A DNA stretch of 38,929 nucleotides from Candidatus Poseidoniaceae archaeon (GCA_949538025.1 CATISI010000088.1:1-38929), one strand, 5' to 3'; positions 44-35,086 are shown, counted from the first letter of the stretch. The notes: generated from the sequence alone by a model not told the origin. Numbers and translations are program-made.

Positions 44-3000
44 ATGGAAAAGGTATCAAAGACCTCGCAACGCCCTGTTTTGAGTTGGCTTATTGCCCCT
101 CTAGCAGTGCTGATTGCAATACTAGCAAACTACGTCGACGGACTCATGTCCATCGATGTTGAATTAAACAACGATGCGATGATGCCAGTCATCATCACCG
201 GAGTCGCCGGTCTCTTGGCCGTCACTCCTCGCATCCTCCGTCAACTAGGATCTCTACCAGAGTCGATTTCTCAAACACAAATCTCCCTCGCTATGTTTGT
301 TATCGCTCTTGTTGGTGCCGGAGTTGCAGAGTCCCAAACCGACGGATTTGTTGGTTTCACGTTCTTGGCGGTACTCTTCGGTGGGTATCTACTCGACACT
401 CGTGAGCGATACGAGTGGACGACTATGCTTGTCTTCGCTGGTGTCGGCGTGCATTCGGCATTCGATATTGCAGCAGCGGCTGCTGTGGATGGATATCTTC
501 CAAACACATACGAGTTCACCGGCGGACAATCTTACGATGTCTCGACGTTCCAAGAAACTGCTCTTGGCTTCGTCTTCTTCACATGGTTTACGGTCTTCCC
601 GATTATCGGTCTTCTCGTTGGTGTAGCTGGTCGTGGTGTTCTCAATCCAGCAGGCGACAAGGGATGGTTTTCCTACAATACAGTCGAATCAGGTTGGAAT
701 CGTCAAGCACTACCACTGCAAATCGCCCTTTTTGTTTGGGCAGCAGCCCACTTGGCCACCATCTGGCATTTCGATCAAGGAAGCATCGCAGATCGCCTAC
801 GCCTTGGTGGTCTGGGTGGCGTTGAAGCAAACGGCTTCGTCGGCTATTACTCGGCCCTTCTGACGGGAATCGTCGCAATCATTGTTTCAGGGATGGTTGC
901 AGAGCGTTGGTACACTCGAGCCATGACACTGAGCTCCCTGTGGGTTCTTTTCCAAATCGGTTCTTGGCTGGAAGCAGGATTTTGGACCAACGAAACCTTC
1001 GAAGAATCTTGGGCTCCTCTGATTTGGCTTGCTATCACGTTCTTCGTTGGTGTCGCTATCTCACTGATTGGAAACCACGAAAAATACGGTGGCTGGTCCA
1101 ACCGTGAGTCACATCGCCCAAGCGGTGCACGTCAATTTTGGAACGCCCATTGGGCCAGTCTATTGACCGTCGTCGCCTTCCTTGTCGGTCTCGTCATTCG
1201 TATTCAGTGGTATGCAGTCCCATCAATGCACGCTCTTGGTACCGACGGATTCGACATGACTGGCGGTTCTGACCCATGGTACATGAAGCGAGTTGTCGAC
1301 TATATTCTCGCTCAGAACGCTCACCTTGTCGTTGATGCAGACCGATTCTACCCAATCGGCGGTATCAATCCACGTCCTCCATTGTTCTCATGGAGTCTAG
1401 CAATAGGGGCCATGGTTTTGCAACCATTCCTCGGCGAGGATGCAGTCTGGTGGAGCATGCTTGCTCTCCCTGCTATCTACGGTGCATTGACCATTCTACC
1501 AGTTGCTGCAATCGCACGAGACCACTTCGGTAAAGCTGCAGGTGTCATCGCTGCTTGGCTGATTGCCTTCATGCCTGCCCACGTCACACACTCGACATGG
1601 GGATTGGCGGACCACGATTCATTCGTTATGTTGTTCATCGCCATTGGATTCATGTTTTACCTACGTGCTGTCAAGTACGCTGGTTCGGAACGTCTTGTCC
1701 GAGCCACATCGATCCGTCCATTCGATATGCTTCGAGCGATGGGTGCGGTTGCACAAGAGCGACAGTATGCAATGGCTAATGCAGTTCTTGCAGGTGTCGC
1801 ATTCGGTGCTGCAAGCCTTGGTTGGAAGGGATTCGTTGTCGGTCCTGCAATTTTGTTCCTTGCATACGCTGCGCAGGTCGCCCTCAACATGTTCCGACGA
1901 CGTGACTCGACAATTTTGAGCACGCTGTTCCTTACCATGCTCCTTACCAATCTCTTGATTGCGTTACCGTTCTACGCACACCCACAGATGAACCTCATGT
2001 TGGATGGAAGCGGTCTTCAACCGTTCCTGTTCATTCTGCTGTTCACCATTGTCATGATGTACATCACAACCGGATTCCGTGACAAACCATGGCTCCTCGT
2101 TCTGGGTACGCTTGCAGTCGGTGCTGTTGCTTTCCTTGGTGCTCTATGGGTTCTCAAGTACTTCAATCTCAGCAACGCATGGGATGTCTTATTCACTGGT
2201 GGTGGATACTTCACGAAGACGAAGATTTTCGGAACGGTTGCTGAAGCAAACGCTCCTGACCGCGGTTACATGTTCGCAAGTTTCGGACCAATCGTATTTG
2301 TCTTTGCTCTCGTAGTGGGCCTCACATCGCTGTGGCGAACCTTCAGCAAGCGAAGCCAAATTTCCTTGGTCTTTGCCGTTTGGATTTTCGCAGCATCGTA
2401 CATGTCCTGGACCGCAGCTCGTTTCCTCTTCAACGCAACACCTGTCGTTGCCATCATGGGCGCCGCAGGAATAGTTGGTTTCTGGAAGTGGGCTGACTGG
2501 GATAGTCTCGTACGTACCTGGCGAAGAGCAGGTATCCGAACACCATCTGAGCGAATTGCTGGTGCGCGACGAGCCGTGTGGCGAACACCATCGTTCTCCG
2601 CAGTTGTTCTTGTCCTCATCATGCTCTCTGGCCAGCAACTTACCTACGGTTTGGATTCAGCGATTCCAAGCAACTCTCCAGCAGAAGGCGACTTGGATGA
2701 ATCGTTCTACTACTCAGTACCTGACATCATGCGTTGGGATGGCCTCGGTGTTTCTGTCCTCGATAGTCGAGACTACGAAGCCTTTGGCGGTCGTGCCTAC
2801 ATGGGGTCGTTTGGAAGTGGTTTCAATGGCCAATACTGGAACGATGCCCATGAGTGGCTCGCCAATCAAGACAAGTATCACGAGGGCGTCTCAACGAAAG
2901 ACGATTGTGATACCCACAATGGTATCTGGATCAGCGATTCAGGCCTTTGTGAGATGAAATTCGGTGATAAACCAGCGTTCGTTTCATGGTGGGACTACGG

Positions 3001-6000
3001 TTTCCAAGCATTGAACACAGGTGAACACCCATCTGTTTCTGACAACTTCCAGACAGGTATTCCCACTTCAGGTAACATGCTTCTTGCTCGTAGTCAAATC
3101 GACTTGGTCGCTATGTTCATCCAACATCTTGCTGTTGCAGACATCACCTACAACGTTGGTAAGTCGGGTGACAAAGCCTTCACTCCAGCGTTCGAATCCG
3201 CGCTCAAGAACGGACTCGAGAATGCTGAACAAATCGAAGAACTTGAACTCGTCATGCTGCAAGACGGCATGGATTTCGATGACATGATAGAAGTTCTAAC
3301 CGATCGCAGCTTCGAGGCGTTCAAGAACAAGGGGGACACCTACATGACACGTGGGTACCCTCTCGATGCGAACGGCATTCCTGACAAGAGCATCGGTCTG
3401 CATTACCGTGTGTGGTCCGATGGTGAATTGATACCTTGTGACAATCCAAGCACAGAATTCTGTTTCAATGGAGATTACGTCTCTGAAGATTCAGCCAACA
3501 GCACCTTCCGAAACAACGCTGACGTCAGCTCGACTGAAGTCTCCGATGTCACACATTACACGTTCGGTGACTATTGGTACACCGCTGACTTGGTGGAAGA
3601 ATACGATTCCGTTTCGACAAGCATCCATCGTCAGAACGCATTGATCGCTCTTGTTGTTCAACTTCTGACCAAAGGTCTTGATGAGAGCCAAGTGGTTGAC
3701 CTTTATCACGATATCATTGGACTGGAATTCAACTACGAAGTTCAAGACTACAACGGCGCTCCTGGAGAGACCATCGAGCGTGACCACGAAATCCGTTACT
3801 TTGCCATTGATGACAAGCTCTATCCACGTGCAGGCCGCTATAATTCAGAAGCCGGTTACAACGGTGGACGACCGCTTGGTATCTTTGGTGCCCCAACCAT
3901 CCTATCCGGACAAGATTACAACACCTTTACCGACGAAGTGTATGAAACCAAGCGTGGAGACCAACCAGTACGTGAAATGGATCGAGAAGCTGTTGACGAA
4001 GCCATGCTCAAAGATGTCTTAGATCAACAATCCGGTGCTGATATCGAGCCATTGACTGTTCAAGATATTCGTGTTGACCACCTCCCCGAATTCTTTGACA
4101 CGATGTTGGCTCGTTCCTATGTCGGATACGGTGCATCAACGCTCGGAGCAGATGCTGGTTCAACCAACCCACAGCCTCGTCAGCAGTTGAGTGAAAGTTC
4201 ACGTGGAACCTCGTTTTTGCAGCAAGCCTACCCTTTGCCGGGTGCCATGATGAATCACTTCGTTATAGCCAACTGGTACGACCCTGAGACACCTGCAATT
4301 TTAGCCAACGCCAACGTCAAGGTCATGAAATACTACTCCGGTGCTGAAATTTCTGGTACCGTGATGACAGAGGACGATGGCTTAGGTCTACCAAATGCTC
4401 GAATTCTCATCGAACGTGATGCATTCTCCGGAGAGGGTGCAGAAGATCTTGATGAGGACACCTACTGGATCCCAATCGGTGTTACTGACGCTGATGAGAA
4501 CGGTGACTGGAGTTTCCTCGCACCTGCAGGAAAGATTCGTGTATCTGCTTTCGCAGGAGTTTATGATGATACGTTAGTTCTTCAAGACATCCAAAGTGGT
4601 GAGTTCGTTGATGGATTTGGCGACGTACTTACAGAGACTAACGATGATCGTGAAGTCTACGCCATTACCGCCATTCTCGGTGAAGTCGCAAACATGACGT
4701 GGTTGGGTGAAACCACCATCAACGTCACAGGTGCGCAAGCAGACCGAGACCCGAACGCCCCAGCAACTGCAGACATGGATATCGAAGTCCAGAGTACGGG
4801 CGTATCAGGAACAGTCACATGGTCTGGATACGGTGATTTCGACGGAGAGCCACTTGTCGAAACAGATTTCATTCTGCGAAACATCTGGGCAATGACCGAG
4901 AACTACACAATGACCACAACCAATGGTTCGTTCGAGACCGATGAAACTCGCGTTCTACAAGGAACGGGTGAGGTCACCTTCTCCGATGTTGGAACATTTA
5001 CCAGCGAAGGTGTGGCACTCGCTTACGATTTCACTGGAAACTTCACTCGAGAGATTTCCGATGCCCGTGTCTTCGCTGGAAACGGAACTTGGATCGGTAA
5101 GGGAACGATTGAAGCAACCTGGATTGAGCACGACAATGCATCACTCGATTGTGGTGAAAACAACACTATGCCAGAAAATGCGACATTGTGTTTGATTTCT
5201 GAAGGAACTGATTTCTCGACGTACCTCTTGGATGGAGAAGTTATGGCCAGTGGACGTTTGACTTCCGATGGTGTTAGCACGCTGATGAAGGAACTCGACG
5301 GTGAGACTTTTGAGGGCACTGGTATCTTCGAAGGTGTTGGAACGCTCAATGGAACTGGACTGTTCATTGGTCCAGGTACCTTCAGCGGTGATATCGTCAA
5401 CCCAGGTTCCTTCTACCAAACTGGTCTTGTTCCGGGCGTATACAACATGATTGCATTGATGCCAAATGGTAGAGAGATTCTCCTACCTGATCCTGTTGAG
5501 GTTGGCATTGAACCAAGTTTCGATTTGGCAATGACTCTGCCGGCCTCGTTGTTTGCAGATCAACTGACAACAATGTCAGGTGAAGCGATTCCGAACCAAG
5601 ATGTGCAACTCATCGATGTTGCTCTTGGCGAAGACGAAATGGTCACCATCACATCCGATGATGAAGGAAACGTCTCATACGGGCCGATTACAGCTGGCGA
5701 ATACTACGTTCGAGTTGATCTCGACGACGATGGATTCTACGAACTCAACCAGACTCTGCAGGTCTTCGATGAGCCAATGAACTTCACCTTTGACACAGGC
5801 GTGCCGGAAATGTACGATCTAACAATCACATTGAACGGCCCAGAAGGATTCGATGTTTCAGGTCTAGAAGTCAACTTCACCGACCCACTCGGATTGTTAC
5901 CAATCAGTGTTGTTTCCGATGAGAACGGTGTTGTTTACGTCGAACTTCCTGTCGGTGAATGGTCCGCAAGTGACAACAGCGATGAGGACTACATCCTGAT

Positions 6001-9000
6001 TGAAGAAATTAAGGTCGAGGATTCAGACTTGACATTGGACTTCACATACTCGACCTCGGTTTGGGTCAACGGTTCTATTGACGCTCCGAACACAGCTGGA
6101 TTTACCTACGAGGAGTGGCTTGCACTCGCTGCAGAAGAGAAACTGTACGAGAATGCAAGTTCAGTTCCAGTTACCTTCCACGGTAACGGACTGGAATTTA
6201 CCACGATTACGGATCAATTCGGTGAGTTCAGTCAGCGCTTACCTGCTGATATGACCTTCAACCTCAATGCGCAAAGTTCCGTATCGAGCTTCGCCGTTGG
6301 CTCTTCTGTCGTTGTATCCGAAGGAATGGCTGATTTAGATGCCTTAATTCTCGAGCCAACCGTGGACGCTGTAGGTGCAATTTATCTGTTCAACAACGAG
6401 ACAAGTTGGAATCAAGATATTCCGAACTACGAGCCTGTTGAAATTCATGCAGAAGGTGAAGATGGTGTCGTATGGACAACGACATCCGATGGAGATGGTC
6501 TGTTCAACATGCAATTGCTCAATGGAACTTGGACCTTCAGTATTCCTGCTGCGGAGTACAATGCAGCATCCGTTTCGGATTACATCGTCAACGTTCAAGA
6601 TGGCATGAACCCAGAACCTGTGAGTTTGATTACAAACCCTGCAAACAGTACTGTGACTCTCAACGTCTTCACCGATTTGGGAGATGGTGTCTTTGAAAAT
6701 GGAACGGCTGTCCGCCCTGATATACAGTTAATTCCTGTATCTGTAGTCGGTGAAGGTGTAAACATCACTTCGGACGACTACAGCGAAGACGGAATTGTTG
6801 AGGTTGTTTTGAGCCCAGGTATCTATGCCATTTCGACCAATAACTTGGACGCATCAGATGAAAACGCAAGTGATGCAAGTCTCGAGGTCAATGCTGTATT
6901 GGACATTATTCCAATCGGTTTGACTGGTCCTGAAGAACCAGTTCTCGTTCCAATCGTTGATGCATGGCGCATGAACGGAACAATCTCATGGGCCAATGGC
7001 TCTGCAATGGTCGAGAACTTCTTGCTCTCCACACCAGATGGTTCAGATTACGTCCCGATCAGTGTTGATGAAAATGGAACCTTCGCAGCCTACGTGCAGA
7101 GCGGTGATTACATTGTCGTGGTTGCACCACTACTCAACGGAGATGGTGTCACAGAATCACTGCGTATGCCAATCACCATTGGAGACGATTCCAGTGTTCG
7201 CACTGAACTCGCACTTTCACTTGTCGAGGCTGTCGAAGTCTCGCTCACCTTGTTGGAAGCGGGTACAGAATCTGAACTCTCTGGAAAGAAGGTTGTCCTC
7301 GTCAGTCATGATGGCTTTGGTAATATCACCATGAATCCATCCGATGCTGATGGAAACGCATCACAATTATTGATGCCAGGAACATGGAGCCTCTACATGA
7401 ACGAGTCCGCAGCACAACGCTACTGGACGCTCGATACATCCGATGCTCCTATCTTGATCGACGCAAACACCTCGCTTGGCGATGTGTATGCAGAATTGGA
7501 AGTTGAAATTGGTGGAAAGGCTTACTGGGATACCGATGAAAATGACATCGCAGATGGCAACGAAGGTGTCGAAGGCGCTGATGTTACCATCCAAGGTGGA
7601 ATCATCGACACGGTCGTGACAACAGACGCTGACGGTGTTTGGCGAATCTATGTCCCAATCCTCGAGAGCTATTCTGTTACCGTCGCAAAGGACGGATTTG
7701 GTGTCGTATCGTACGATGACAATGATACAGGGATGTATGTTGTTGACAATGAACCTGTTTCACAGGATATCGAAATGTCAGCAGCAGAAGTCACCGTAAC
7801 AGGGACCATCACCGATGTTCTTGACGCCTCCCGATTGGATGGTGCAACCATCACACTCTACGGAACCTCAGAGAATCAACAAGATGCTGTTGAAGTTGTT
7901 GGAGTTCTCGTTGATGAGACGCTTTCATTCACAGCAGTTGTTGAACCCGGACAATGGGTTGTCGTTGTTTACGAAGATGATGCACCGTTCAACGGCGGTG
8001 GTGTAGCAGTTGGATTGCTTGAAGCTGAAGTACAGAATGGCGGTTCAATTGAACTTGTTATGAGCAAGGGTGGTTGGGTTGATGTATCAACCGAATTCAC
8101 TTCGTTCAACCTACAGACCTTCAATGCTGGCATGGGCGATGCTTCATCACCTGTTGCAGATGTTGTTGATATCGAAGTTGACCTTGGAGATGGACGTGTT
8201 TGGGCCCTACCGTTGGAATCCGACGGTACACTCGAAGTCCTCCTCCCAGCTGAAGCAGCAACATTCAACTCGGAATTCTCAACCGTTCAGCGCGATTTGA
8301 CCATGAACTACACCGCCGGTGTTTCGATTGACAACGGTGACGAAGGCCGAACCTCGGTCATGCTTTCCTACAACAGAAAAACGAACAGCGACCTAACGCT
8401 CACTGTCGACTCGGTTACAGGAGCCACAGTACTCGGAGATGAAAACCGTGATTTGCTCGCTGTTGTGGACACAAGCGACGACGCCAACTACACGGCCATT
8501 GAGTTCGATGTCCTCGCACAATACGGTGGAACTGAGATTTCAGATCCGTTCGAAGTGACCGGTACAGTAACCGTATCGCCTGACCAAGAAGATTGGTCTG
8601 TTGAATTCTACAACGGTACGGATTGGGTCAGCACATCCAACGTTCAGCTTGGCATTGGTGACGTTGCAGAGAACGCAACGCTCGAAGCTACGCTGCGTGC
8701 ACGAATTGTTCTGCCATCTGTTGAAACGGCATGGTGGCTTGAAAACGGTCATGACATCAACATTCGATTCTCTGCCGACAGTGGAGATATGACGGAAGTT
8801 TCGCTCAATGTCGAAGTCCCTCAAACCTACGGATTCAACACAACGGATGTTACATCCACGGTTGGTGTTGCACCTGGTGGTACTACCACTGCGTCCTTGA
8901 CTATCAACAACAACGGTAACGGTGATGACTCCTTCACGTACGAAGTGCTTGACAACCTGCCAGATGGTTGGACGGTAACTCCAATGAATGGTGTCACCAC

Positions 9001-25600: not shown

Positions 25601-28370
25601 ATGGTCACCACTCCGCATCGGTGTGAACCCATTGAATGGTTCGGATTTATTTGAAAACCCTGATGGTGATGGGTACGATGTCAACAAGGATGGTGTTCTC
25701 ACACAGAATGAGATGTTTGTCAACTACCTTGAGTATCACATTCGCTCAGGTCTCTTCTTGGATAATCAAACACTCGATGGCATGGAAATGCCGAATGGTT
25801 TCACGACAGATTTGTTTGACAACATTTCTGATTTCGGACTTCCAGAGGCTGATTTCGCCTCTCGAGCGAGCGGTGCAATCCTTGCAGGCCAAATTCCAAT
25901 TGAAAAGGGTTCGACAGATCCGTTCAGTGCTGATTCCGATGAGGATGGGATGCCGGATGGTTGGGAGATTTGGTTCGCACGATGGAACGTTATTGATGAT
26001 GAATGGACACTGAATCCGCTGCAACCGAGCGATCGATGGCTTGATGCAGATGACGATGGGATGACCAACTGGGAAGAATACAATCTCATTGATTCAAGTC
26101 TATCCGAAACGAACACCAATCGTTCATCGCCCCAATGGTTTGTCACCACGCTTGGCTCGGCCTATGCATTCCAACAGTGGCCTTCAGCGTCGACAACATA
26201 TTCCTTTGGTACCTACATGACCTCGGACCAGTACAATCTCACTGGTCCAACAGGTGACCCAAACAACGTTGATACGGATGGAGATGGCATCATCGATGGG
26301 CTTGAGTTGCTGTTCACTGCATGGAACATTTCTGCTCAAACATGGACATTGAACCCAGTCGTTGCAGGCGATGGTACTTTTGACAGCGACAACGACGGAT
26401 TGGTCGATTTGCAAGAATTTGCCCTTGCGACTTCAAACCCAGAGAACGGAATTGATGCACCAGCAGATGCTCCACTGCTTCACGAAGATGGGGACGTGCA
26501 ACAGCCAACGAAAAAGGCGCAACGAGTTTTCCAAATTCTCATATCAAAGGATTCCCGTGGAAAGCGATTGTTGGACGATTTCAACGCCTGGCAGTCCGGT
26601 GAACCTCCGAATGTGTTCATTTCTCTCCTCCTAGGAATGACAGACCCTACCAACCCGGATACCGATGATGATGGCATGTACGATGGTTTCGAGTATTGGT
26701 TCACTTCATGGGATTTGAACGAGAATCGATGGGGATTGAATCCACTGATTGAGACCGACGTCAATCTTGATTCGGACGGTGATAGTTACGATTGCAACCG
26801 AGACGGAACCATTGACCTGGACGAGCGCTACTCCAACCTGCGTGAGTGGGAAGCACGAACTTGGGGCAAGTACCTGAATAGAACCTCAGTACCTGCTTCT
26901 GTTGGTATCGTGGACTTCGGCGAGGATGCTATGAATGCGTACATCGAAGAAACAGGCATGACCATCTTGCAAGCTCGCCAAGCCTTGATTGATGACTTCA
27001 TGGCGAAAGGACCTGAGTCTGTGAGCCGAATGAGCACCATCAATTCCTTCAATGAAAACAACTTCAACCGAACTCTAGTCGGTGTATCCGACCCAACGCA
27101 TCCTGATTCTGATTCCGATGGAATTCCGGATGGCTGGGAATATTGCTACGCCCTTTACGGTATGGACAATCCAACAACTGAAAACCATTGGGCCGCAAAC
27201 CCACTGAATCCATGGGATGTGAACTATGACGGTGATTCAGACGGCTGGTATGACCGGACTGCGTTCGATGTACCTGCACCACAAGGCGAATGGTCCGATC
27301 GCGTCTTTACCCCCTCCTCGCAAGTGGTCCAGCCTGGCATCGGTGACCTACCGTTCACCAACTGGATGGAGTACGACAACGACACGCGCCCAGATTCCAA
27401 CGATAGCGACAGCGACTCTGAGTCGTTCATTACAGAAACGATGAACGGTATGGTCACCGCACATTACCAAGATTTCAATCTGACAGATGGACGTGAAGTG
27501 TTCAAGTATGGTACGAACCCAATGGACAACGACACGGATGGCGATATGATTCCTGATTGGTATGAGTATGCCAAGGCTTGGAATGAATCCAACGACAATT
27601 ATTCATCGTTTTTGCAGATTCGAGTTGATTGGATCGATCCCGGTACTGGCGGACCTTGTGACACCTCGACGAATTCATGTTTACCTTTGTCGTTGGATGC
27701 TGGAGTCCTTGGCCGTCCAGACCTTTCCTACACGTGGTTTACCATGGATCCCAGAGATGCAATCGATGCCAACGAAGATGCAGATCAAGATGGAAATTGG
27801 GATTGTTCTGGTGTCGGTTGTGTGTATGAACCCTACACAAATTTCCAAGAGTATTTTGCCATCACGAGCGAGCAACTATCAAGCCCGAATGCCGTACGCC
27901 TATCCGGCTTGACCTACCAAGGTGAGGTTCTACAAGAGGGATGGCAGTTGCGTGCACTCTTGCTGGGTTTGGGCCAGTGGGATGAGGGTGTGAAGAACTA
28001 TCTCAAGATGGACAAATCACAGAGTTCCGATTTCCGTTATGCCTACATCGTCAACGATAACGATGTCGATTTCCTTGTTCAAGATGCATCCAACCACGTT
28101 GTACTCAGTGGTGGTAATCTCACCGATCCTTGGGAGATTTACTACACGGGCGCTCCGAATACCGCCCCAGTACGTGCCGTTGGGGAGCACGAATTCGGAT
28201 GGTATCTCTTGGACTACAACGATGATCACGTCGCTGAAGGAACCGATCCTACCAATTGGGATACGGACGGCGATTGGATGGTAGATTGGTTCGAAGTCAA
28301 CGATGATGAACAGGACGGAAGTCGGGGTGAAACTTCTCCAATCCGGTACGATTCACGTCAAACCACATAG
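22620..28370 (+). CDS. Giant (1916 aa) secreted or N-terminally anchored protein built from thrombospondin-type-3-like calcium-binding repeats, with a central propeller-like region
   Basis: An in-frame TAG at 22617 excludes any earlier start, so the start is GTG 22620 or TTG 22629. The N-terminus is RRSQTTLLTSLAVIAGLLFMSQF. At least 13 DxDxDGxPDGWE-type units were counted by eye, e.g. DTDGDGIPDVHE (from nt 22767), DTDGDGMPDGFE, DSDSDGMPDGWELAYGLDP, DTDGDGMPDGWEIEH, DSDEDGMPDGWEIWF, DSDSDGIPDGWEYCY and DTDGDWMVDWFE. Reg_prop-like strands (LWIGTPSGLHRLN, ILVGSSDGLWVLAG, LYIGTERGMMTLES) occur at about aa 380-760. Confidence 0.85.
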   Translation: MIVLRRSQTTLLTSLAVIAGLLFMSQFPVISPVSNVHPDDTFGEKPPTTDTDGDGIPDVHENIFEEWINFSAVDGRLVTMKGLDKSDASDADFDVDRDGLNNTEEYCWPYPDNCNDPGFSRGLTGTLDENGDRIYLDPRVSDTDGDGMPDGFEAWMCDRAGGFDEVTQRYVCPYFDPLNASDQTDDPDEDGFDVNRDGFLTVAEQYTSPEEYRYGMPGNFTHELDGLWCSATLPQGSVLTQWPFITNGANASFVNILPACTSNATGVVGEDLWLGTDPLLDDSDRYSWDGFAIRPLYPSFGDGMPDGWEVHFGLNPLNRSNALLDDDRDGWDLNRDGLVSADVSRTDTAIALGESLSNLEEFYTHNDEGNTVRSGLREVQLGVNDSSFKEYPLIFNAIPGSLSVMHHDVRSILVEGSTGYYLTRYGMTTIDYETETTQDQWFPQGITGYEAAFVESENGPHSVAIATSHGIHVAALQVDGFVEPIESWSSTEAVEVFALQQLAIEGSSQQLIALGSNGDGMVVEVNAGGQITQTYELGSNLKSALMQDEVVVTELEHGNVPGGGLVLYIGTERGMMTLESATGRDDASPTWRFFFDANPSNIPNRIDDLRTLNLGATGNPAEVQALVLDGPNPQNPTALWIGTPSGLHRLNLELNDMSFGDLLEHPGGDADELAKSNNIHSIYPTGNEILVGSSDGLWVLAGNYLDVYGLQSNSEMPGEIASIAIMERDGETYILGASAPGRFANLELMDPGANDSDSDGMPDGWELAYGLDPTDPWDALLDGDVDGLRLNGGDEIDRWWTNLEEYRYVARTVDGYNSTMPNQSDSDMDGLMDGAEFFGYYLSETNFDCYYTPQLVYTCDEALGEQARTTYSSLNSIDVGTDPTVLDTDGDGMPDGWEIEHRRWVGNSFTGGNNWSLDPTRADDAAWDADQDGLANLCEYQWSLVRKAGLQGDLFEEFGESPEAVATWSVPDPNLVDSDGDTLPDGWEADAQCTWSPLRIGVNPLNGSDLFENPDGDGYDVNKDGVLTQNEMFVNYLEYHIRSGLFLDNQTLDGMEMPNGFTTDLFDNISDFGLPEADFASRASGAILAGQIPIEKGSTDPFSADSDEDGMPDGWEIWFARWNVIDDEWTLNPLQPSDRWLDADDDGMTNWEEYNLIDSSLSETNTNRSSPQWFVTTLGSAYAFQQWPSASTTYSFGTYMTSDQYNLTGPTGDPNNVDTDGDGIIDGLELLFTAWNISAQTWTLNPVVAGDGTFDSDNDGLVDLQEFALATSNPENGIDAPADAPLLHEDGDVQQPTKKAQRVFQILISKDSRGKRLLDDFNAWQSGEPPNVFISLLLGMTDPTNPDTDDDGMYDGFEYWFTSWDLNENRWGLNPLIETDVNLDSDGDSYDCNRDGTIDLDERYSNLREWEARTWGKYLNRTSVPASVGIVDFGEDAMNAYIEETGMTILQARQALIDDFMAKGPESVSRMSTINSFNENNFNRTLVGVSDPTHPDSDSDGIPDGWEYCYALYGMDNPTTENHWAANPLNPWDVNYDGDSDGWYDRTAFDVPAPQGEWSDRVFTPSSQVVQPGIGDLPFTNWMEYDNDTRPDSNDSDSDSESFITETMNGMVTAHYQDFNLTDGREVFKYGTNPMDNDTDGDMIPDWYEYAKAWNESNDNYSSFLQIRVDWIDPGTGGPCDTSTNSCLPLSLDAGVLGRPDLSYTWFTMDPRDAIDANEDADQDGNWDCSGVGCVYEPYTNFQEYFAITSEQLSSPNAVRLSGLTYQGEVLQEGWQLRALLLGLGQWDEGVKNYLKMDKSQSSDFRYAYIVNDNDVDFLVQDASNHVVLSGGNLTDPWEIYYTGAPNTAPVRAVGEHEFGWYLLDYNDDHVAEGTDPTNWDTDGDWMVDWFEVNDDEQDGSRGETSPIRYDSRQTT

Positions 28371-28418
28371 TGACCGCAGAGCAAACGCTTGATAATCCTT
28401 CAAGCACTGGGTTGTAAC

Positions 28419-31400
28419 ATGAGTGTAAACGCTGTCTCTCAACGCTCCATTGCTGTTGTGCTTCTCGCACTGTTCATTGGAATGAGTTTTTCTCCGTTTG
28501 GAGAGTTGTGGATTGAGCAAGCAGAGGCTGCAGAAGTGGCTCGTCACACTTACGAATTCAGCGATGGCACGACAGAGTACATTGCACTCTATCAAGGCGG
28601 TAACGCTGATACTGGAGCAAAGATTGCTCTGCCAAAAGGAGCCCAAGTAACAGATGTTCAGATGACCTTGTCCGGTGCATCGGCGACCGGATGGTCCTCG
28701 ATTCCAACGACAACGCGTGATCATTGGGTTGCTGGAGATGCATCGAATACGGACAACCAGAGTGCAGACCTGACGCTTGCTATGGCCAACTCGAGTCATG
28801 CATTCAATGCCCATGGCATGGATGAGGACATCAATCCATCCAGCACAGCATGGCTCGACAACGGCACCTACGCTGTACGTCAACCTCATACCTCCAATTC
28901 AACGGATGCACTCTTCTCTCAGCAACTGAAACTCAGTCCAAACTCGCTCAACGCACAAGGACAAGGGGCAGTTTTGCGACATCACGACTGGTTGTACCTC
29001 TCGACCTGGTCCTCGACAAGTTTCCACAACATCGTACACCGTCTATATCCAAACAACGGGACTCGTGAAAGCATCATTACGCTCGATCAAAACGGCTGTA
29101 CGCTTCCAAACAAACATTCCTCAACCTACTATGGGCAATGGGGTTTCCGTGATTGGGTTGTAACGGATGATGAGCGCTTGTACGCCATCCTTTCCGGCTA
29201 CAAGTACTTCTACACGTCGACTGCAAATACGCTGTATCATCGCGTTCTTGAATTCGACATATCGAATGAGAACGAATGGGTTTGCATCGATTCGTTCCAG
29301 CCACAAGGGAATGGTGATTACACAGGCATTACCTACGATCCCGTTGAAGATACAATTTGGATTCTACACAATCAAAACAGAAGGATTCAATCCTACACGG
29401 TCAGTGCTACTGGTGATTTCGAACGTGGTGACCAATACTTCACATTCCAAACCTCATCATCCTCGATTTGGCAATGTGGCGTTACCAATCAACAAGCTCG
29501 TGGCCTTGAGATGAATCAAACCCATTTCTTCATGCGATGTCAAGATGGTAACTACTACAACGATCGTGATCAACTTGAGTCATGGGGTCGCTCAGGCAGT
29601 GCAGTTGCCTTGATTCCTGAAAACACCGTCCGCAGCATTTCATCCTTGGGATACGGTTTATTCTATGATGGTCGGCGTTTCATCACAGTCGATTCCGGTT
29701 ATTCAACATGGTCAAGCAGTCCATCGTACCACGAGTTTGGAACAAGTTGGCAGTACAAAACAACACCTGCTCCGGGTACAACGACATGGTTTGGCCCGGT
29801 GATTGAAACACCAGACGATGTTCTATCGGTCAACATGGAAACACTTTGGTCTGCGACTTCCATTGGTGACCGCGTTGATTACTGGGTTTCAGCTGACAAT
29901 GGAACTCATTGGGTTTCTGTTGAATCGAACACAACGGTGCATTTCCAACATCCCGGAAAAGAACTGGTCTGGAAGGCAACACTCATTGGTTCCACTGCAG
30001 TATCATGGTGGGTCGATCTGGAATATGCTACCGAATACGAATCGAGCGGAATATGGATTTCACCTGCCAAACCTACCGGAACCAAAGTGGGCAAAGTTCG
30101 TCCCGTATGGGTTGCAACCACAGATGCTGCAACTGATATCACGGTTCAGGTTTCCAACGACGATGGTTCAACTTGGCAACCTGCTGCCAATCTCGTTGAG
30201 ACGAGTTTCTCAACCGATGGTGCAGGTAACGTTCTGCGTTACGCAGTAACCATGACCTCCACGGACAGGTTCAAGACACCCGTTATGGACAGCCTTGAAA
30301 TGTTCTATGAGGAAGGATATCCTGATCGGCCAAGGATAGACGTTGGAGCCGATGGAACCTTTGATTGGGAGAGTATTCTGTTCCTCAATGAATCTGCTAT
30401 TGATGTCAGCGATGATTCAGAAGTTGGGGTTGAAGTGGCCTCCCAACCAACGCTTGTCAATGCCTTCAACGACTACATTCCTGACAACGGGGACGGCACA
30501 GTTGAGGTTCCACTTGCCATCAAGGCACAGACCTCTGGTCGGGTCAAAATCACGAACATCGACATCGCCTACAAGATGAACACGCATGCCATCAGTGCGG
30601 CATTTGAAGGAGGTATGGCAGCACCTGATGGGATTGCACGGAACCTCATCATCAAAGTCGCTCATGGTGATGAAGTCAATTTCGTGACTGAGGTCACTGC
30701 CTCACTCAACAACTCCCATGGTCAAAATCCAACCTTCAAGTGGCAACAAGGCGATTCCTGCAGCACATTGAACGACGCTGGTGGTATCGTTTCCTTTGAC
30801 ACTGCAAATTGCTCTTCGTTCCTCGACGCGAATGATGTAAGGACAATCCGGATTCCTGTGACTGTTGACTGGAGTTGGGACGATGAGGCAGCCACTGAGG
30901 CACTGCTCACCGTGAAAGATTCGTTGGGTACGGCAGTCAACAACTGGAAAACTGAAAATATGCGTATGCGGGTTGAGAACGACATTCAGCTCGATGGTCT
31001 ACAAGTCTTTGATGAAACTGGCCGACAGTTGTTTGCCCAAGATTGGGTGAGAGGAGGGCAGAATCTCTCCTTCCTTGGGAAGATTCACTTTGAGTCATCG
31101 CAACTCTCTCCTCTTTCAGGTGAGTTCAATTTGCGAGTGATTGGCCAAAACGTCACTTATGATGGTGACCCAATCGACCAACCAATTGTTCTCGCTGAAG
31201 AATCCAATCCGAACTTTGGCTCGTACAATTTGACGTTCATGTCCCCTATTGAATCGAGTCCGGGTGGTATGGTGTTCTCTGTCGAAGCCGTCAACTTGCC
31301 AAATGGTTCAACCTTCACGAACCCAGGGTACAACACCATTCGACTTGTTCTCGATGGAAATTCACCCCTTGTGTTGGGCGTGATGCCTTTTGATGGCCAA

Positions 31401-33809
31401 GAGCGCCATGCTGGGCCACCTGCCCCTGGTGGTCAAGCGGTCACGGTCAACATTCAGGACAGCGTTGATCCGCCTACACAAATCAGCCTCCACTATTGGG
31501 TAGGGTGCAAATCCACCGTAGCAATTGGATGTCACGATTTCAATTTTGACGGCCTACCGCAAGAAGATGAGTACGCTGAGAAAATCCTCTCGTCTCCAGA
31601 AACCATCGCTGGTGGTCTCAACATCTTCAACGGTCTCGTTGACGACTCAATGCTTGAACATGGACAAGTTGTGTCAATGTATGTAAGCGGCAAGGACGGT
31701 CAACAAAATCAGGTTGCCATGGGTGGTGGGCCTGTCTGTCCACCAACGCCGCAGGTATGTGGATATGCGCCTGGCCAAATCTTGCCAAACTGGGACGCAG
31801 ATGCATCAACGTACCGGATTCGACAAGAATTCGAACCTGTCGTTGATTTGACCAATTCAAGCATTGTTGGACACGAAGATGAGCAACCTCTTCACCCCGG
31901 CATTATGTACACGGCTCAGGTGGTCCTTTCTGACCGAAATGGATGGGATGACATCCAATTTGTACAATTCGCTCTCGGTGAAGATGTCAACGATGACGAA
32001 ACCTCGATTTTCATCCAACTCGAAGAAGATGAGAATGGTATGCCAAAGGCTCGACTCGAGTCTGGCGGGGAATACATCGCTGTCTCCAACCTTTATTCAC
32101 AGGTCTCCACGTTCGGTGACGATGCCAATCAGTTACTGATTCGTGCGCGATTCCAGTTGACATGGTCGTTCCCTGAGGTTTACGATACCGATGGTCTCGA
32201 ACATTTTATTCCAGTCCTCAAGGTAACCGACAAACCTTGTAACGAGGGTGAAACAACTCCATGTTTCTCCAAGATCAGTGGTTTGGGTTCCAACGCTTGG
32301 AGTCTTGACAACGACTTCCGATTCTACACCGAACCCGGCCACATCAAGGCTGTTGAACTTCGCGACGGTACCAATCACTACAACGATGAAGCGGACGAGA
32401 CACTGATTGGGAGCGGTCAAGCGCTTCGAGTTACCGGACGTGTCTTGTTTAGCGAGGATGAGACACCTGCTCCTCCGGGTGCTTTCGATGTCGTATTTGG
32501 TGATTTTGATCACGTATGGAGAACCTCTCCTCGAGACAACGGTGAATTCAGCCTTGACTTGTTGGTTCCTGCGGTAAATTCGGGTCACCTTGACCTCCGC
32601 TTGCGTCTTGATGACTTACCAGGGCTGGCTCAAGATGAAACCAACCCACTGCCACGTGTGCGCTTTGCAGTCGACAGTTCAAATCCGACCATTCAAACAG
32701 TCATGTTGAACGAAGTTCCTGCTGGTTCACCTCTTTCAATCGGTGAGGCAAACTCGCTACAAGTCATGCTCGAAACCGTTGACGACAACGGTTTCGATAT
32801 GGACAATCCTGCAGTCTTGCATTACCGAATTCGTGCAGGAGAAGCTGAAATCTCTCGTGGAGCGACTGCGTTGCCTGAGACGCTTCCGTTTGGCGACCAA
32901 TTCTTCTGGACTGGTGAAATTGATTTGACCGATATGGGCGCTACAATGCTACTTCCATCCTACGTCGTTGATGTATGGGTCTCTGGTTCGGATGCTACAG
33001 GAAATCCATTCGATACATCCAACAACAACATTGACCAGCCATTCGCAACGTGGCCATTGTCCCTTCTTGGGCCGAGTATTTCCTTCACTCATCCAGAAAC
33101 AGAAATCGAATGGAGCAATCCCAGCCCAACCCGCGGTGAGACCTCTGAACTTGAAATCAGCATCCTCAACGAAGGTGGAAAGGGCAATGTTCGCTTTGTT
33201 CTTCAGCGGTTGGTCGATACCGGTTACTGGAACGAAGAAGCAAACACGAGCATGCCTGTTTCTGCTGGTATCACTGCTGTTGCTTCGATACCAATCGTAG
33301 CGAACGTGGAAGCAGGAGAATCGCAAGCATATCGGTTGTTGGTCCTTGTCGATGGTGTTGAGATGGATCGTTACAACGTTGACCCACTCATTGTCAAGAA
33401 AGACACAGTTCGTGATGGTGATGCGCTTGCACAGCAAGCGAGTGATGGTCAATTTGCCATCTTCATGTATCTTGTTGCAGTTGCTTCTCTCTCTGCATTC
33501 CTATGGATGCTTGTCATGTATCGAAAGATGAAGTATGGTGATGATGAATTCGAAGCAGACCAAACAGAAGCCGTTGCTGAGGAGATGCAACTGAAGGAGG
33601 TTCCCGAGTTGAAGGTTCAGCCCGCTCTACCACCGAAACCAACTCAAGTTCCTGCACCAGTTGCTCAACCGACGCCTCAACCGTCCATCCAACCGGATCC
33701 ACGAGGAATTGCTCCACTGCCACCAACCGGCCTTCCTGAAGGTTGGACGCAGGAGCAATGGAATCACTTTGGCTGGAAGTATATTGAAGGATTCTCAAAG
33801 AATCGATAG
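28419..33809 (+). CDS. Giant (~1796 aa) surface protein of unknown family: signal peptide, two BNR/Asp-boxes, CARDB-like membrane-proximal domain, TM helix, Pro-rich tail
   Basis: I prefer ATG 28419 (MSVNAVSQRSIAVVLLALFIGMSFSPF...AEAAEV) over the TTG at 28389. Asp-boxes are SADNGTHW (nt 29889-29912) and SNDDGSTW (nt 30153-30176). The CARDB-like segment is GETSELEISILNEGGKGNVRFVLQRL. The TM helix FAIFMYLVAVASLSAFLWMLVMY is at nt 33453-33521, followed by a 95-aa tail. Confidence 0.8.
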   Translation: MSVNAVSQRSIAVVLLALFIGMSFSPFGELWIEQAEAAEVARHTYEFSDGTTEYIALYQGGNADTGAKIALPKGAQVTDVQMTLSGASATGWSSIPTTTRDHWVAGDASNTDNQSADLTLAMANSSHAFNAHGMDEDINPSSTAWLDNGTYAVRQPHTSNSTDALFSQQLKLSPNSLNAQGQGAVLRHHDWLYLSTWSSTSFHNIVHRLYPNNGTRESIITLDQNGCTLPNKHSSTYYGQWGFRDWVVTDDERLYAILSGYKYFYTSTANTLYHRVLEFDISNENEWVCIDSFQPQGNGDYTGITYDPVEDTIWILHNQNRRIQSYTVSATGDFERGDQYFTFQTSSSSIWQCGVTNQQARGLEMNQTHFFMRCQDGNYYNDRDQLESWGRSGSAVALIPENTVRSISSLGYGLFYDGRRFITVDSGYSTWSSSPSYHEFGTSWQYKTTPAPGTTTWFGPVIETPDDVLSVNMETLWSATSIGDRVDYWVSADNGTHWVSVESNTTVHFQHPGKELVWKATLIGSTAVSWWVDLEYATEYESSGIWISPAKPTGTKVGKVRPVWVATTDAATDITVQVSNDDGSTWQPAANLVETSFSTDGAGNVLRYAVTMTSTDRFKTPVMDSLEMFYEEGYPDRPRIDVGADGTFDWESILFLNESAIDVSDDSEVGVEVASQPTLVNAFNDYIPDNGDGTVEVPLAIKAQTSGRVKITNIDIAYKMNTHAISAAFEGGMAAPDGIARNLIIKVAHGDEVNFVTEVTASLNNSHGQNPTFKWQQGDSCSTLNDAGGIVSFDTANCSSFLDANDVRTIRIPVTVDWSWDDEAATEALLTVKDSLGTAVNNWKTENMRMRVENDIQLDGLQVFDETGRQLFAQDWVRGGQNLSFLGKIHFESSQLSPLSGEFNLRVIGQNVTYDGDPIDQPIVLAEESNPNFGSYNLTFMSPIESSPGGMVFSVEAVNLPNGSTFTNPGYNTIRLVLDGNSPLVLGVMPFDGQERHAGPPAPGGQAVTVNIQDSVDPPTQISLHYWVGCKSTVAIGCHDFNFDGLPQEDEYAEKILSSPETIAGGLNIFNGLVDDSMLEHGQVVSMYVSGKDGQQNQVAMGGGPVCPPTPQVCGYAPGQILPNWDADASTYRIRQEFEPVVDLTNSSIVGHEDEQPLHPGIMYTAQVVLSDRNGWDDIQFVQFALGEDVNDDETSIFIQLEEDENGMPKARLESGGEYIAVSNLYSQVSTFGDDANQLLIRARFQLTWSFPEVYDTDGLEHFIPVLKVTDKPCNEGETTPCFSKISGLGSNAWSLDNDFRFYTEPGHIKAVELRDGTNHYNDEADETLIGSGQALRVTGRVLFSEDETPAPPGAFDVVFGDFDHVWRTSPRDNGEFSLDLLVPAVNSGHLDLRLRLDDLPGLAQDETNPLPRVRFAVDSSNPTIQTVMLNEVPAGSPLSIGEANSLQVMLETVDDNGFDMDNPAVLHYRIRAGEAEISRGATALPETLPFGDQFFWTGEIDLTDMGATMLLPSYVVDVWVSGSDATGNPFDTSNNNIDQPFATWPLSLLGPSISFTHPETEIEWSNPSPTRGETSELEISILNEGGKGNVRFVLQRLVDTGYWNEEANTSMPVSAGITAVASIPIVANVEAGESQAYRLLVLVDGVEMDRYNVDPLIVKKDTVRDGDALAQQASDGQFAIFMYLVAVASLSAFLWMLVMYRKMKYGDDEFEADQTEAVAEEMQLKEVPELKVQPALPPKPTQVPAPVAQPTPQPSIQPDPRGIAPLPPTGLPEGWTQEQWNHFGWKYIEGFSKNR

Positions 33810-33819
33810 GTGTTGACAA

Positions 33820-34257
33820 ATGTCAGCAACGGATTCAATGGTGACGCTCCAAGAGCGCATGGTGAATCTAATTGGCCAATTGACCATGCCCGTAGCTGAA
33901 GTTGCCCTCGTTTTGCAACATCACATTCAGGGCTTGCTCGGTTCGCTCAATGAGTACGTTGAGAAAACGGGAGCATCAATCAGTGAGCAGGTTGCTCGAC
34001 CTTGGCCAATCGAGGAAAACAATGTGGACAATAACCCAATCACTTTCGATGTTGAAAAAGTACTGAAGATTGTTGACCAAGATCGGATGGATATTCTTTC
34101 AACACTCATTCGTGTGACACTCGTGGAAACAAAAATGAACCTTGTTGAAGGTATTCTTGCTCTACGCTCATGGGAGCAACTTGTACGGCAACAACTTGCA
34201 GATGCAACAGGGCCTGGTCAATTGTTCTCGCCGATTGAATTGCCAGAAGAGTGGTAA
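33820..34257 (+). CDS. Small (145 aa) acidic, probably helical cytoplasmic protein of unknown function
   Basis: The ATG lies 10 bp after the giant gene's stop and is preceded by GGTG. There is no signal peptide or TM segment. The sequence is amphipathic and helix-like throughout, and the C-terminus is ...IELPEEW. Confidence 0.6.
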   Translation: MSATDSMVTLQERMVNLIGQLTMPVAEVALVLQHHIQGLLGSLNEYVEKTGASISEQVARPWPIEENNVDNNPITFDVEKVLKIVDQDRMDILSTLIRVTLVETKMNLVEGILALRSWEQLVRQQLADATGPGQLFSPIELPEEW

Positions 34258-34297
34258 TGGACAGACGTTTTAGAACAGAGAGTGCTGAGTGGGGTGT

Positions 34298-35086
34298 ATG
34301 CGAAATAAGCGGTTTATGGGTGTTCTCCTCTCCTGCCTGATGCTTTCCATTCCAATGGCGGGTTGTGCCTCGGATATCGAAACCATCCTCGGCGAATCTT
34401 GGGGTGTCCCAGGTGGATTAGCGCTTGCATGTCTTCGAGACGATGATTACCGTGAACTCGTCATTGAAATCGACCATGCACCCGGGTACAACCCTGAGTC
34501 ATCGACCGTTAGCTTGCTGAAGGAACGACTTGGTCAAGTCTGCGACAAGCCAGATGGAATCAGAATTGAACTCAATGAGATGAATTTTGCAGAAACTACC
34601 ACGTGGACGGCAAACAAAGTTCGTGAAATTGCACATGAGACAATGGACGCTCCACCTCAGACATCCGTCCTACGTTGGCATGTTATCATGCCAGAAGGAA
34701 AGTATTCTGATGACAGTGTCCTCGGTGTTGCAGTCGATGCCTCCACGATTGCTTTGTTTTCGGATTCCATCGATGGTGCAACCTCCATCTTCAACCCTCG
34801 AATATCTGCAGAAGATATCGAGAACAGTGTAATGGTGCACGAGTTTGGACATCTACTTGGGCTTGTAAATCTCGTTTACACTTCTCCTGCAGACCATGAA
34901 GATTCTGAACATCCTGGACATTCCAACAACGAAGACTCGGTTATGTATTGGGCGGTTGAGACTGTGACCATTAGTGCGTGGTTTAGCGGAGACTTGCCAA
35001 CGCAGTTCGACCAAGACGATCTCGATGATCTAGCCGGTATGAAGACTGGTGAACTCGCAACAACCGATCAGTTGTGGCGACCTTAG
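34298..35086 (+). CDS. Putative lipoprotein zinc metalloprotease (metzincin-like)
   Basis: ATG 34298 (GGGGTG upstream) gives MRNKRFMGVLLSCLMLSIPMAGC/ASD, with a lipobox-like AGC. The zinc motif is VMVHEFGHLLGL (HEFGH at nt 34838-34852; HExxHxxG). A His-rich segment (HEDSEHPGH) and a Met-turn-like SVMYW follow. Confidence 0.75.
   Translation: MRNKRFMGVLLSCLMLSIPMAGCASDIETILGESWGVPGGLALACLRDDDYRELVIEIDHAPGYNPESSTVSLLKERLGQVCDKPDGIRIELNEMNFAETTTWTANKVREIAHETMDAPPQTSVLRWHVIMPEGKYSDDSVLGVAVDASTIALFSDSIDGATSIFNPRISAEDIENSVMVHEFGHLLGLVNLVYTSPADHEDSEHPGHSNNEDSVMYWAVETVTISAWFSGDLPTQFDQDDLDDLAGMKTGELATTDQLWRP

Follow-up and report, generated by a model that had tools for sequence, protein, structure and literature searches.

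The closest described counterparts of the locus analysed here belong to several separate systems. The oligosaccharyltransferase AglB-L of Archaeoglobus fulgidus (3WAJ/5GMY, 875 amino acids; AfAglB in what follows) joins a GT-C domain of 13 transmembrane (TM) helices to an external core. Stretches of tens of kb in which several genes in a row encode very large extracellular proteins are described for the cell-wall island of Haloquadratum walsbyi (PMC4535781) and for Giant1-5 of Apilactobacillus kunkeei (PMC12863079). For Marine Group II (MGII) the literature mentions adhesion domains, thrombospondin-type genes, which are widespread (PMC6461757), and extracellular S8 peptidases (PMC6461757, PMC6864105, PMC4511931). 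The DNA studied here is a stretch of 38,929 nucleotides, called the window throughout (CATISI010000088.1:1-38929 of assembly GCA_949538025.1), from a Candidatus Poseidoniaceae archaeon, that is, from Marine Group IIa (MGIIa). Its region 44-35086 had been described, from the DNA alone, as a candidate integrated island of surface glyco-adhesins (the original prediction). The gene content of that description is right in nearly every detail, while its label of an integrated island is rejected: the region is, in our judgement, probably a vertically inherited neighbourhood, conserved throughout the order Poseidoniales, that encodes a surface proteome in three tight transcription units.

The gene map is based on an open reading frame (ORF) listing, on profile scans (Pfam, NCBIfam) and on simple sequence statistics; the evidence for each feature is given in brackets.

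44..9595, plus strand: g1, giant AglB/STT3 oligosaccharyltransferase, multi-pass, 3183 amino acids (Pfam STT3, TIGR04154, alignment to 3WAJ).
9651..10856, plus strand: g2, membrane-anchored S8 subtilase, 401 amino acids (Peptidase_S8, E=1.5e-40, full profile).
10955..15346, plus strand: g3, surface protein with signal peptide, beta-helix, Ig-like domains, TM helix and cytoplasmic tail, 1463 amino acids (domain and TM scans).
15359..17872, plus strand: g4, STAND-type regulator with putative winged helix-turn-helix (wHTH), AAA_16 and TPR, 837 amino acids (Pfam scans; HTH below cut-off).
17869..18339, minus strand: g5, class III signal (pilin-like) protein, 156 amino acids (N-terminal motif).
18336..20522, minus strand: g6, class III signal (pilin-like) protein, 728 amino acids (N-terminal motif; weak DUF7289).
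20519..21559, minus strand: g7, archaeal type IV pilin-like protein, 346 amino acids (Pilin_N and DUF7289, below cut-off).
21626..22546, minus strand: g8, metallo-beta-lactamase (MBL)-fold hydrolase, ORF of 306 amino acids (Lactamase_B and Lactamase_B_2 matches).
22550..22580, plus strand: conserved promoter-region block, 31 nucleotides (alignment of MGIIa and MGIIb loci).
22620..28370, plus strand: g9, secreted, very acidic TSP3-like repeat protein, 1916 amino acids (repeat and TM scans).
28389..33809, plus strand: g10, orphan surface protein with TM helix and cytoplasmic tail, 1806 amino acids (no family match).
33820..34257, plus strand: g11, acidic protein, 145 amino acids (no family match).
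34289..35086, plus strand: g12, lipoprotein-like zinc metalloprotease candidate, 265 amino acids (lipobox-like N-terminus, HExxH).

The conservation of this arrangement was studied in one genome per GTDB species, with an alignment of g4 as the query. A relative of g4 is encoded in 505 stretches, and the MGIIa counts reported here refer to the best 80 of these, all from Poseidoniaceae and including the original MG-II assembly CM001443. In 80 of the 80 loci the order and strand of g1 to g9 are identical to those in the window, with no internal gaps, and all nine genes are present in 51; the check on co-occurrence and synteny that the original prediction had proposed was therefore passed. Amino acid identities are 66-99% for g4, the most conserved gene of the cluster (49-50% in MGIIb), 59-97% for g8 and 50-97% for g9; among the remaining surface proteins they span 32-96%, with 32-94% in the C-terminal part of g1. 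Two peptides from the putative helix-turn-helix (HTH) segment of g4, VPFALSQM and KRKAYFLT, matched 583 genome stretches, and an exact-sequence look-up of the g4 of the window returned no record. Beyond g9, the genes from g5 through g12 and on to Pcp-NUDIX, GT2, DnaJ and DUF5591 are collinear in three relatives, L085-L087 (g10 identity 53, 59 and 97%). In the closest of these (L087, monsoon_2__contig_29448_pilon) g7, g9 and the GT2/DnaJ genes appear split or shortened, probably by long-read frameshift errors and not because they are true pseudogenes.

The arrangement extends to another family of the order, Marine Group IIb (MGIIb). When the catalytic part of g1 was searched against 1.84 billion representative proteins, the homologues fell into two tiers. 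Tier 1 consists of proteins with 46-64% identity and 3146-3228 amino acids (full-length representatives), whose catalytic region begins at residues 330-397, and tier 2 of proteins with 29-38% identity, mostly of 2000-2775 amino acids (a range of 2,100-2,800 is also cited), whose catalytic region begins at residues ~5-120. The g1 homologues carry the names Ca. Poseidoniaceae or Poseidoniales, and one tier-1 cluster (47% identity) holds a protein named Ca. Thalassarchaeaceae, which is MGIIb. The MGIIb loci end inside g9, and 7 of them are long enough to show the placement of the cluster; the order is HD protein, a 580-residue protein, CDP-archaeol synthase (CarS), purD, AglB (3148-3151 amino acids), S8, g3, STAND, MBL and the start of g9. 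Identity to the window is 33-57% overall: 37-41% for S8, 35-36% for g3, 49-50% for STAND, 49-54% for MBL and 39-44% for g9.

The spacing of the genes defines the three units. The gap between g3 and g4 is 12 bp, those across g9-g12 are 18, 10 and 31 bp, and inside the trio g5-g7 the start of g5 overlaps the stop of g6, and the start of g6 the stop of g7, by 4 bp. Since gaps are of 10-31 bp or give way to 4-bp overlaps, co-transcription within units is likely, and tight operon-level linkage of g3 with the STAND gene, of the trio, and of g9-g12 is well supported. On this basis the first unit would be aglB-S8-g3-STAND, the second the MBL gene with the trio (the latter in MGIIa only), and the third g9-g10-g11-g12 behind one promoter element. 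Ten of the twelve products of g1-g12 are membrane or extracytoplasmic proteins, and the locus may encode a large share of the exposed proteins of the cell. That the units together make a single functional system is plausible, each functional link between genes being one that we infer.

The promoter element of the third unit is a conserved non-coding block. The block, TGTATGAACAACGCTCCATCATTGCTATAAG at 22550-22580, contains a palindrome-like GAAC-N3-G(T/C)TC element that abuts a TATA-like ATAAG; in many genomes the palindrome has the form GAAC-N3-GTTC, adjoining ATAAG. Its consensus is TGTc.GAACAtCGcTCCATCATcCtcATAAG, located 66-74 nucleotides upstream of the g9 start codon, and it is found in all 67 MGIIa loci that hold the start of g9; its alignment columns carry almost 2 bits each, those on either side almost none. 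Seven MGIIb loci have the form GAACGACGCTCCATCA. There is one exact copy in the window, and one per locus. Archaeal core promoters consist of a B recognition element (BRE) and a TATA box, and the layout of the block is the one expected of a transcription-factor site beside such a promoter, which suggests that it is one. In the g9 leader we also observed a possible 6-bp hairpin, GGGCGTTACGCC (22604-22615), in which 84.7% of alignment cells are paired, versus 76.2% in shuffles and 33-58% in slid controls, with compensatory changes at 4 of the 6 pairs over 24 distinct sequences; this helix was specified by hand and its support is moderate, and RNAalifold predicted no structure in the leader. A scan for sigma-70 promoters and terminators gave results at chance level, with a model that is not appropriate for archaea.

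The composition of the DNA is that of its surroundings. GC content is flat along the window (0.46-0.52), and in four genomes with GC of 0.46-0.55 cluster and flanks agree within 1-2 points, with tetranucleotide correlations r of 0.87-0.93; the k-mer and GC deviation expected of an island was thus not seen, nor was any compositionally or phyletically distinct insert. Scanning of the ORFs gave no tRNA, Rfam match or mobility domain, in accord with the original prediction, and an Rfam scan of the window as a whole had no match. There is no patchiness of presence among close relatives (80/80 MGIIa loci collinear), the sole difference being the trio, which separates the two families. Because synteny is conserved and composition equals that of the flanks, we regard the region as core, vertically inherited DNA.

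The four giant ORFs and roughly 25 kb of coding sequence of the original prediction are g1, g3, g9 and g10 (3183, 1463, 1916 and 1806 amino acids; 25.1 kb in total). All four are acidic (pI 4.05-4.35), and their export, too, is borne out: g3, g9 and g10 begin with hydrophobic, signal-like segments and g1 is a multi-pass protein. Three of the four end in TM anchors, as had been stated (residues 3152-3170 of g1, 1364-1382 of g3 and 1691-1709 of g10), and g9 has none. The description of these proteins as repeat-rich holds at the sequence level for g9 and not for the others: a BLAST of each chunk against the masked remainder of the protein (E<=1e-3) detected no internal repeats in g1 and g10 and one weak pair in g3. 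At the DNA level the sole array reported by Tandem Repeats Finder is a 40-bp repeat in two copies inside g10, of no evident significance.

The N-glycosylation enzyme is indeed fused to one of the giants, with the STT3/AglB domain at residues ~360-1018 of g1. An extra module of 8 TM helices (residues 1-355) precedes the STT3 domain of 13 TM helices (~356-862) and the AglB core (~930-1020, with WWDYG at 982). These are followed by a conserved extracellular region (~1185-1580), by an arm of CarboxypepD_reg-type beta-sandwiches (for example 1842-1902 and 2506-2578) with a choice-of-anchor-T-like region (2838-3028), and by the C-terminal TM helix and a short basic tail. Pfam STT3 (PF02516) matches residues 405-805 with 45.8 bits (cut-off 24.5) and CarboxypepD_reg matches with 59.5 bits; with the archaeosortase-A-associated STT3 model TIGR04154 the score is 161 bits, below the cut-off of 450, and the C-termini of g1, g3 and g10 contain no PGF motif of the PGF-CTERM sorting signal. 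The resemblance to AfAglB lies in the 13-TM GT-C domain, the external core and the catalytic motifs. Phmmer aligned residues 5-442 of 3WAJ and the WWDYG motif to g1 with E=1.9e-8, placing the acidic loop-1 motif GGSDPWY (equivalent of D47) on GGNDPWY and GLADHD (equivalent of DxH) on GFNDHH. TVAE at residue 731 fits T[IV]xE, although HMMER placed the TIAE of AfAglB eight residues upstream; SWWDYG occupies residues 981-986, and WWDYG is at residue 947 in the MGIIb orthologue. A DK/MI motif of the form DxxKxxx[MI] was not found in residues 986-1200. With its catalytic motifs intact, the enzyme looks competent as judged from its sequence.

Unlike AfAglB, g1 is 3.6 times longer, begins with the 8-TM module of ~355 residues and carries a sequon-rich extracellular extension of ~2,100 residues that ends in a second TM anchor. 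Sequons number 41 in g1, versus 21.7 in shuffles (z=4.7), and 27 versus 16.5 in g9 (z=2.8). The length of the protein (~3150-3230 amino acids) is held in homologues down to 46-50% identity. Conservation, computed per 100 residues over homologues at 49-60% identity, peaks in the catalytic membrane domain (0.60-0.78) and is high over residues 1200-1900 as well (0.54-0.69); the last 1300 residues have the lowest values (0.30-0.50) and are the fastest-evolving stretch of the cluster. The N-terminal module (window 44-1108) is restricted to AglBs of the Poseidoniales type and, because its number of helices is even, leaves the topology of the rest unchanged. For this module a Pfam search at E<=1 gave nothing credible, and Foldseek of its AlphaFold2 model (pLDDT 68.8, pTM 0.69) against the PDB gave at best E=0.076 with a TM-score of 0.26. 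For residues 1150-1950 a profile search of PDB sequences found nothing significant, and an AlphaFold2 model from a 7-sequence alignment was unusable (mean pLDDT 38). A NOMO-like reading of the extension was considered and discarded: matches to NOMO domains are weak and below cut-off, and the domains are generic CarboxypepD_reg/transthyretin-like ones. The enzyme is universally conserved; of the variant seen in g1 we found no description in the literature searched.

Giant AglBs also occur outside the Poseidoniales. The tier-2 proteins, named Thermoplasmata, Thermoplasmatota or Methanomassiliicoccales archaeon and annotated as carboxypeptidase-regulatory-like or GT39, resemble g1 in having STT3 followed by an array of CarboxypepD_reg/SdrD_B type, and share residues ~1150-1580 of g1 at 21-26% identity; they differ in lacking the N-terminal extension, in the identity of the catalytic part (30-38%) and in their neighbourhoods. 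A tblastn search with all proteins of the window on six tier-2 loci retrieved AglB, purD and weak TPR, S8, MBL-fold and g10 similarities only. In L089 and L103 the neighbours are an RNA polymerase operon, pyrF, a small CARDB protein, a thioredoxin and purD; in L090 they are housekeeping genes including CarS. L088 (1-9762) encodes an 8356-residue protein and a 1077-residue Ig/PKD protein immediately upstream of AglB on the same strand, L102 a CARDB protein and, two genes onward, an S8 protease, and L104 (18749-21274) a convergent 841-residue AAA_16/TPR protein beside an AglB of 2818 residues. The last of these was considered as an orthologue of g4 and set aside, size and architecture being alike but similarity being at the level of the TPRs only. 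On the available sequences, the giant form of AglB is ancient among uncultured Thermoplasmatota and normally found amid housekeeping genes; the Poseidoniales alone combine it with S8, g3, STAND and g9, and the trio occurs in MGIIa only. As a separate observation, in L089 (16570-17789) and L103 (16498-17722) AglB is followed by overlapping genes for the small CARDB protein and the thioredoxin-fold protein; the latter has a faint OST3_OST6 match and is reminiscent of the Ost3/Ost6 subunits of the eukaryotic oligosaccharyltransferase, and purD lies two genes onward.

In g3, whose signal peptide likely starts at M19, a right-handed beta-helix, Big_7/Big_6 Ig-like domains and an acidic disulfide repeat precede the TM helix and a tail of ~80 residues. 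This tail (window ~15170-15343) contains DPYAW and HPGW[LIM]WD..N.W[VA]PDPNY, invariant in 71 MGIIa orthologues, and the second motif is retained in MGIIb at 35% overall identity. Likewise, the TM helix of g10 is followed by a tail of ~97 residues (window ~33720-33806; tails past the TM helix are of 80-100 residues in both proteins) that ends in an invariant PPLPPTGLPEGWT.EQWNH[YF]GW.YIE. Among the ORFs of the loci studied the Trp-rich tail motifs are confined to these two proteins, and they have something of the flavour of WW domains or DUF2510; the constancy of the tails, like that of the g9 block, speaks for selection. Otherwise g10 is an orphan: it has no Pfam or NCBIfam match, and a 26-sequence profile found no relative among PDB sequences. 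Its homologues form 149 clusters, of which the 120 listed have 1754-1856 amino acids and 52-97% identity. The small protein g11 (139-146 residues in L085-L087), which begins 10 bp past g10 just as g10 begins 18 bp past g9, is without a clear TM helix, has one weak hydrophobic stretch, and matches no family even in Pfam at E<=1.

In g9 Asp and Glu make up 18% of the residues; the N-terminus is signal-like, there is no membrane anchor, and 1106 of the 1916 residues lie inside repeats, among which are 13 TSP3-like DxDxDGxxDxxE units. These units, together with partial model matches, recall the Ca-binding TSP3 proteins CglD and MtsD of Myxococcus; the scores, however, fall well short of the equivalog cut-offs (38 vs 400 bits), the context is archaeal and there is no gliding machinery. 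Compared with the giant-gene clusters of Haloquadratum and A. kunkeei, the Poseidoniales cluster is fixed in position and content across a family or order, and a regulator and the glycosylating enzyme are part of it. The island of Haloquadratum, of which one natural population yielded seven novel versions, seems to vary between strains (PMC4535781).

Two extracytoplasmic proteases, one S8 and one metzincin-like, had been proposed. The first is confirmed: g2 is predicted to have a cytoplasmic N-tail, a TM helix at residues 55-73 and an extracellular catalytic domain whose triad (D-T-G, H-G-T, G-T-S) is invariant in 64 orthologues. The N-tail contains the conserved motifs ELLPEP and QW..KVTGW, and the best NCBIfam match, below cut-off, is mycosin-like. 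As for the second, g12 has the HExxH motif, a lipobox-like ..MAGC.., the sequence HEFGHLLGLVN and a possible Met-turn, SVMYW, all kept in 4 sequences; membership of the metzincins did not stand, the position of the third ligand in HExxHxxGxxH/D being occupied by Asn and the matches to Peptidase_M10 and M6 being weak and below cut-off. On these motifs we consider g12 a zinc-protease candidate. The gene for the MBL-fold hydrolase, g8, precedes the trio, shares its strand and diverges from g9; since its relatives have 248-276 residues, compared with the 306-residue ORF, its start is probably near 22456.

That g4 is a STAND protein is also confirmed. AAA_16 scores 38.3 bits in g4 (cut-off 32.6) and TPR_12 81 bits, Walker A (GIAGIGKT) and Walker B (LIVIDD) are invariant, and the N-terminal segment, almost invariant as well, resembles HTH_Crp_2 at residues 12-64 (22.6, below the cut-off of 27). 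The combination of AAA_16, a TPR sensor array and a putative DNA-binding domain is that of the MalT/AfsR-type STAND regulators, to which g4 gives partial model matches; it differs from them in being archaeal and in the position and type of its HTH, which is N-terminal and of the winged-helix kind (Crp/MarR-like, below cut-off) rather than C-terminal and of the LuxR type. Throughout the order g3 and the STAND gene, which starts 12 bp past it, remain paired.

The coupled trio of pilin-like proteins was found as described, three genes with start/stop overlaps whose products have class III (pilin-type) N-termini. The signal motifs are DDA followed by VSEILGVIMMLAMV in g7, EEA followed by VSAAIATVLLFGGV in g6 and REA followed by AATELGYVFTFLLGV in g5, and they are kept across MGIIa, where the N-termini read ..[AG]AATELGY[IV]FTFLLGVLL.. 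for g5 (called at 156-158 residues in relatives), ..[DE][DE]AVSAA[IV]ATVL[LM]FGGV.. for g6 and ..[DE].[AG]VSE[IV]LGV[IV]M[ML]LAMV.. for g7. With the archaeal type IV pilin-like proteins (PF07790, DUF7289) the three have in common that the N-terminus is charged and that it is accompanied by a cleavage-type motif, [DE][AG], and a helix of hydrophobic residues. Family scores remain below the Pfam cut-offs: 22.9 bits for Pilin_N in g7 (cut-off 25.2), and 15.9 and 14.6 for DUF7289 in g7 and g6 (E=0.0095 and 0.024; cut-off 27), with a strong precomputed DUF7289 match in the g7 orthologue of L085 and no family match for g5, even in Pfam at E<=1. The trio further departs from known pilins in the unusual size of g6 (728 amino acids) and in having no adjoining assembly genes: the window and +/-10 kb of the related loci are devoid of an assembly ATPase, a platform protein and a prepilin peptidase.

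The housekeeping surroundings of the cluster are equally constant. In relatives the genes upstream of g1 encode TctA, an HD protein, CarS and PurD, with purD directly adjoining; in the window itself the left boundary of the cluster coincides with the edge. Downstream, beyond g12, the window contains two further genes identified by domain scans:

35261-36460: pyroglutamyl-peptidase (C15)/NUDIX fusion.
36745-38067: GT2 glycosyltransferase, the one that the original prediction had placed just beyond the region.

The fusion is kept at 315-352 residues in relatives, so that the start of the window ORF is probably too far upstream. Small minus-strand ORFs at 35083-35424 and 36454-36969 are also called in relatives (101-111 and 168-171 residues); the second has a weak match to PF01877, RNA_binding.

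The gene complement suggests the following model. The giants would be exported by Sec, and AglB would N-glycosylate them on the outer face of the membrane, its own arm and g9 above all. g1, g3 and g10 would be held by their C-terminal TM helices and g9 by Ca-mediated association, the anchored giants forming a glycoprotein coat or an adhesive layer that g2 and g12 may trim or shed. In MGIIa the trio, cut by a prepilin peptidase encoded elsewhere, might insert or assemble at the surface, and the STAND protein would control transcription, possibly by sensing the Trp-rich tails that g3 and g10 carry. A bolder version, which we regard as speculative and quite doubtful, would make the cluster the core of the Poseidoniales envelope, with AglB itself a structural component, self-glycosylated and anchored at both ends, and with g3 (and g10) as single-pass surface receptors whose tails dock onto the TPRs of the STAND protein, which would act at the palindromic block of g9-g12. 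Were it true, the glycosylating enzyme would be built into the very coat that it modifies, a design that, without the N-terminal module, would be common to many uncultured Thermoplasmatota; the cultured members of this phylum are known for lacking ordinary cell walls.

Several observations weigh against the interpretation of the locus as a coherent surface neighbourhood, and lend themselves to a simpler account in which independent genes are held together by general collinearity, AglB being a housekeeping enzyme, the proteases serving nutrition, the STAND protein acting elsewhere and the giants being unrelated adhesins. The housekeeping flanks (CarS and purD upstream, DnaJ and DUF5591 downstream) are as collinear as the cluster, so that synteny fails to single it out as a unit; the linkage of purD and CarS to AglB is as stable in MGIIa and MGIIb as that of S8, and, with purD near AglB in L089 and L103 and CarS in L090, as old or older, hence conserved order is no proof of common function. 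The six tier-2 loci are without g3, g9, g10 and the trio, and in most of them AglB sits amid housekeeping genes. Even within the order the trio is missing from the MGIIb loci, the STAND gene (25171-27723, plus strand) directly adjoining the MBL gene (27724-28539, minus strand) in L092. Since each locus has a single g9 block, with none ahead of AglB, and no motif is common to the three units, there is no evidence for a regulon spanning them; g3 and g10 show no excess of N-X-S/T sequons over shuffles; and the S8 subtilisins of MGII have been read as nutritional exo-peptidases, that is, as extracellular peptide-degrading enzymes (PMC6864105). We nevertheless consider a coincidental neighbourhood rather unlikely. 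The very short or overlapping gaps argue for co-transcription, at least inside units; the concentration of membrane and extracytoplasmic products would be improbable for random neighbours; g3 and g10 share a style of cytoplasmic tail seen nowhere else in the loci; and there are hints of similar associations in distant lineages, such as the AAA_16/TPR protein of L104, the S8 protease of L102 and the giant Ig/PKD proteins of L088. The one functional neighbourhood of the original prediction thus survives as tight linkage within units and a shared surface theme, and is weakened by the equal collinearity of the flanks and by the absence of the trio from MGIIb.

The two remaining explanations fare much worse. 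Large acidic surface proteins in a cluster are typical cargo of cell-wall islands, as in Haloquadratum (PMC4535781), and the rapid evolution of the last ~1300 residues of g1 (0.30-0.50, compared with 0.6-0.78 in the catalytic part) would suit a horizontally acquired or integrated island with an adhesin system. Composition does not deviate, however, there is no tRNA, integrase or transposase, the position of the cluster and its housekeeping neighbours are identical in all MGIIa genomes studied and in those 7 MGIIb loci that are long enough, and protein divergence tracks host lineage; we take an island origin to be highly improbable, refuted as far as computation allows by composition, fixed position and lack of mobility genes. 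A defence or conflict locus, in which STAND NTPase, protease and nuclease-like MBL would work together as in Avs/AVAST-type systems, might be suggested by weak PADLOC similarities (g4 to TPR and PDC-S73, g8 to Avs1a and RTasMBL, g2 to a subtilase model). These matches, though, are generic and at the domain level, those of the MBL protein span only ~60 residues, and g4, with its putative HTH, is a core gene in a fixed position, whereas a defence system would be expected to be patchy in its distribution; we give this idea even less credence than the island.

What is new in the vertically inherited surface neighbourhood that we favour is to be sought in its parts: a giant AglB with an extra module and an anchored arm, the orphan protein g10, cytoplasmic tails that are conserved, and a promoter block kept throughout the order. 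In the literature searched we found no description of a giant AglB, of such a cluster or of DUF7289, and the earlier statement that the combination cannot be mapped onto a described archaeal system stands. For annotation the locus is a caution: where genomes are this collinear, the conserved order of genes, taken by itself, says little about whether they share a function. Marine Group II counts among the most abundant archaeal groups of the surface ocean; to our knowledge its members have never been cultured and nothing is known of their cell envelope. The locus poses the puzzle of why an oligosaccharyltransferase needs an extracellular arm of 2,000 residues, and it provides concrete candidates for the surface proteins of these organisms, for their attachment to particles and for what viruses and grazers see.

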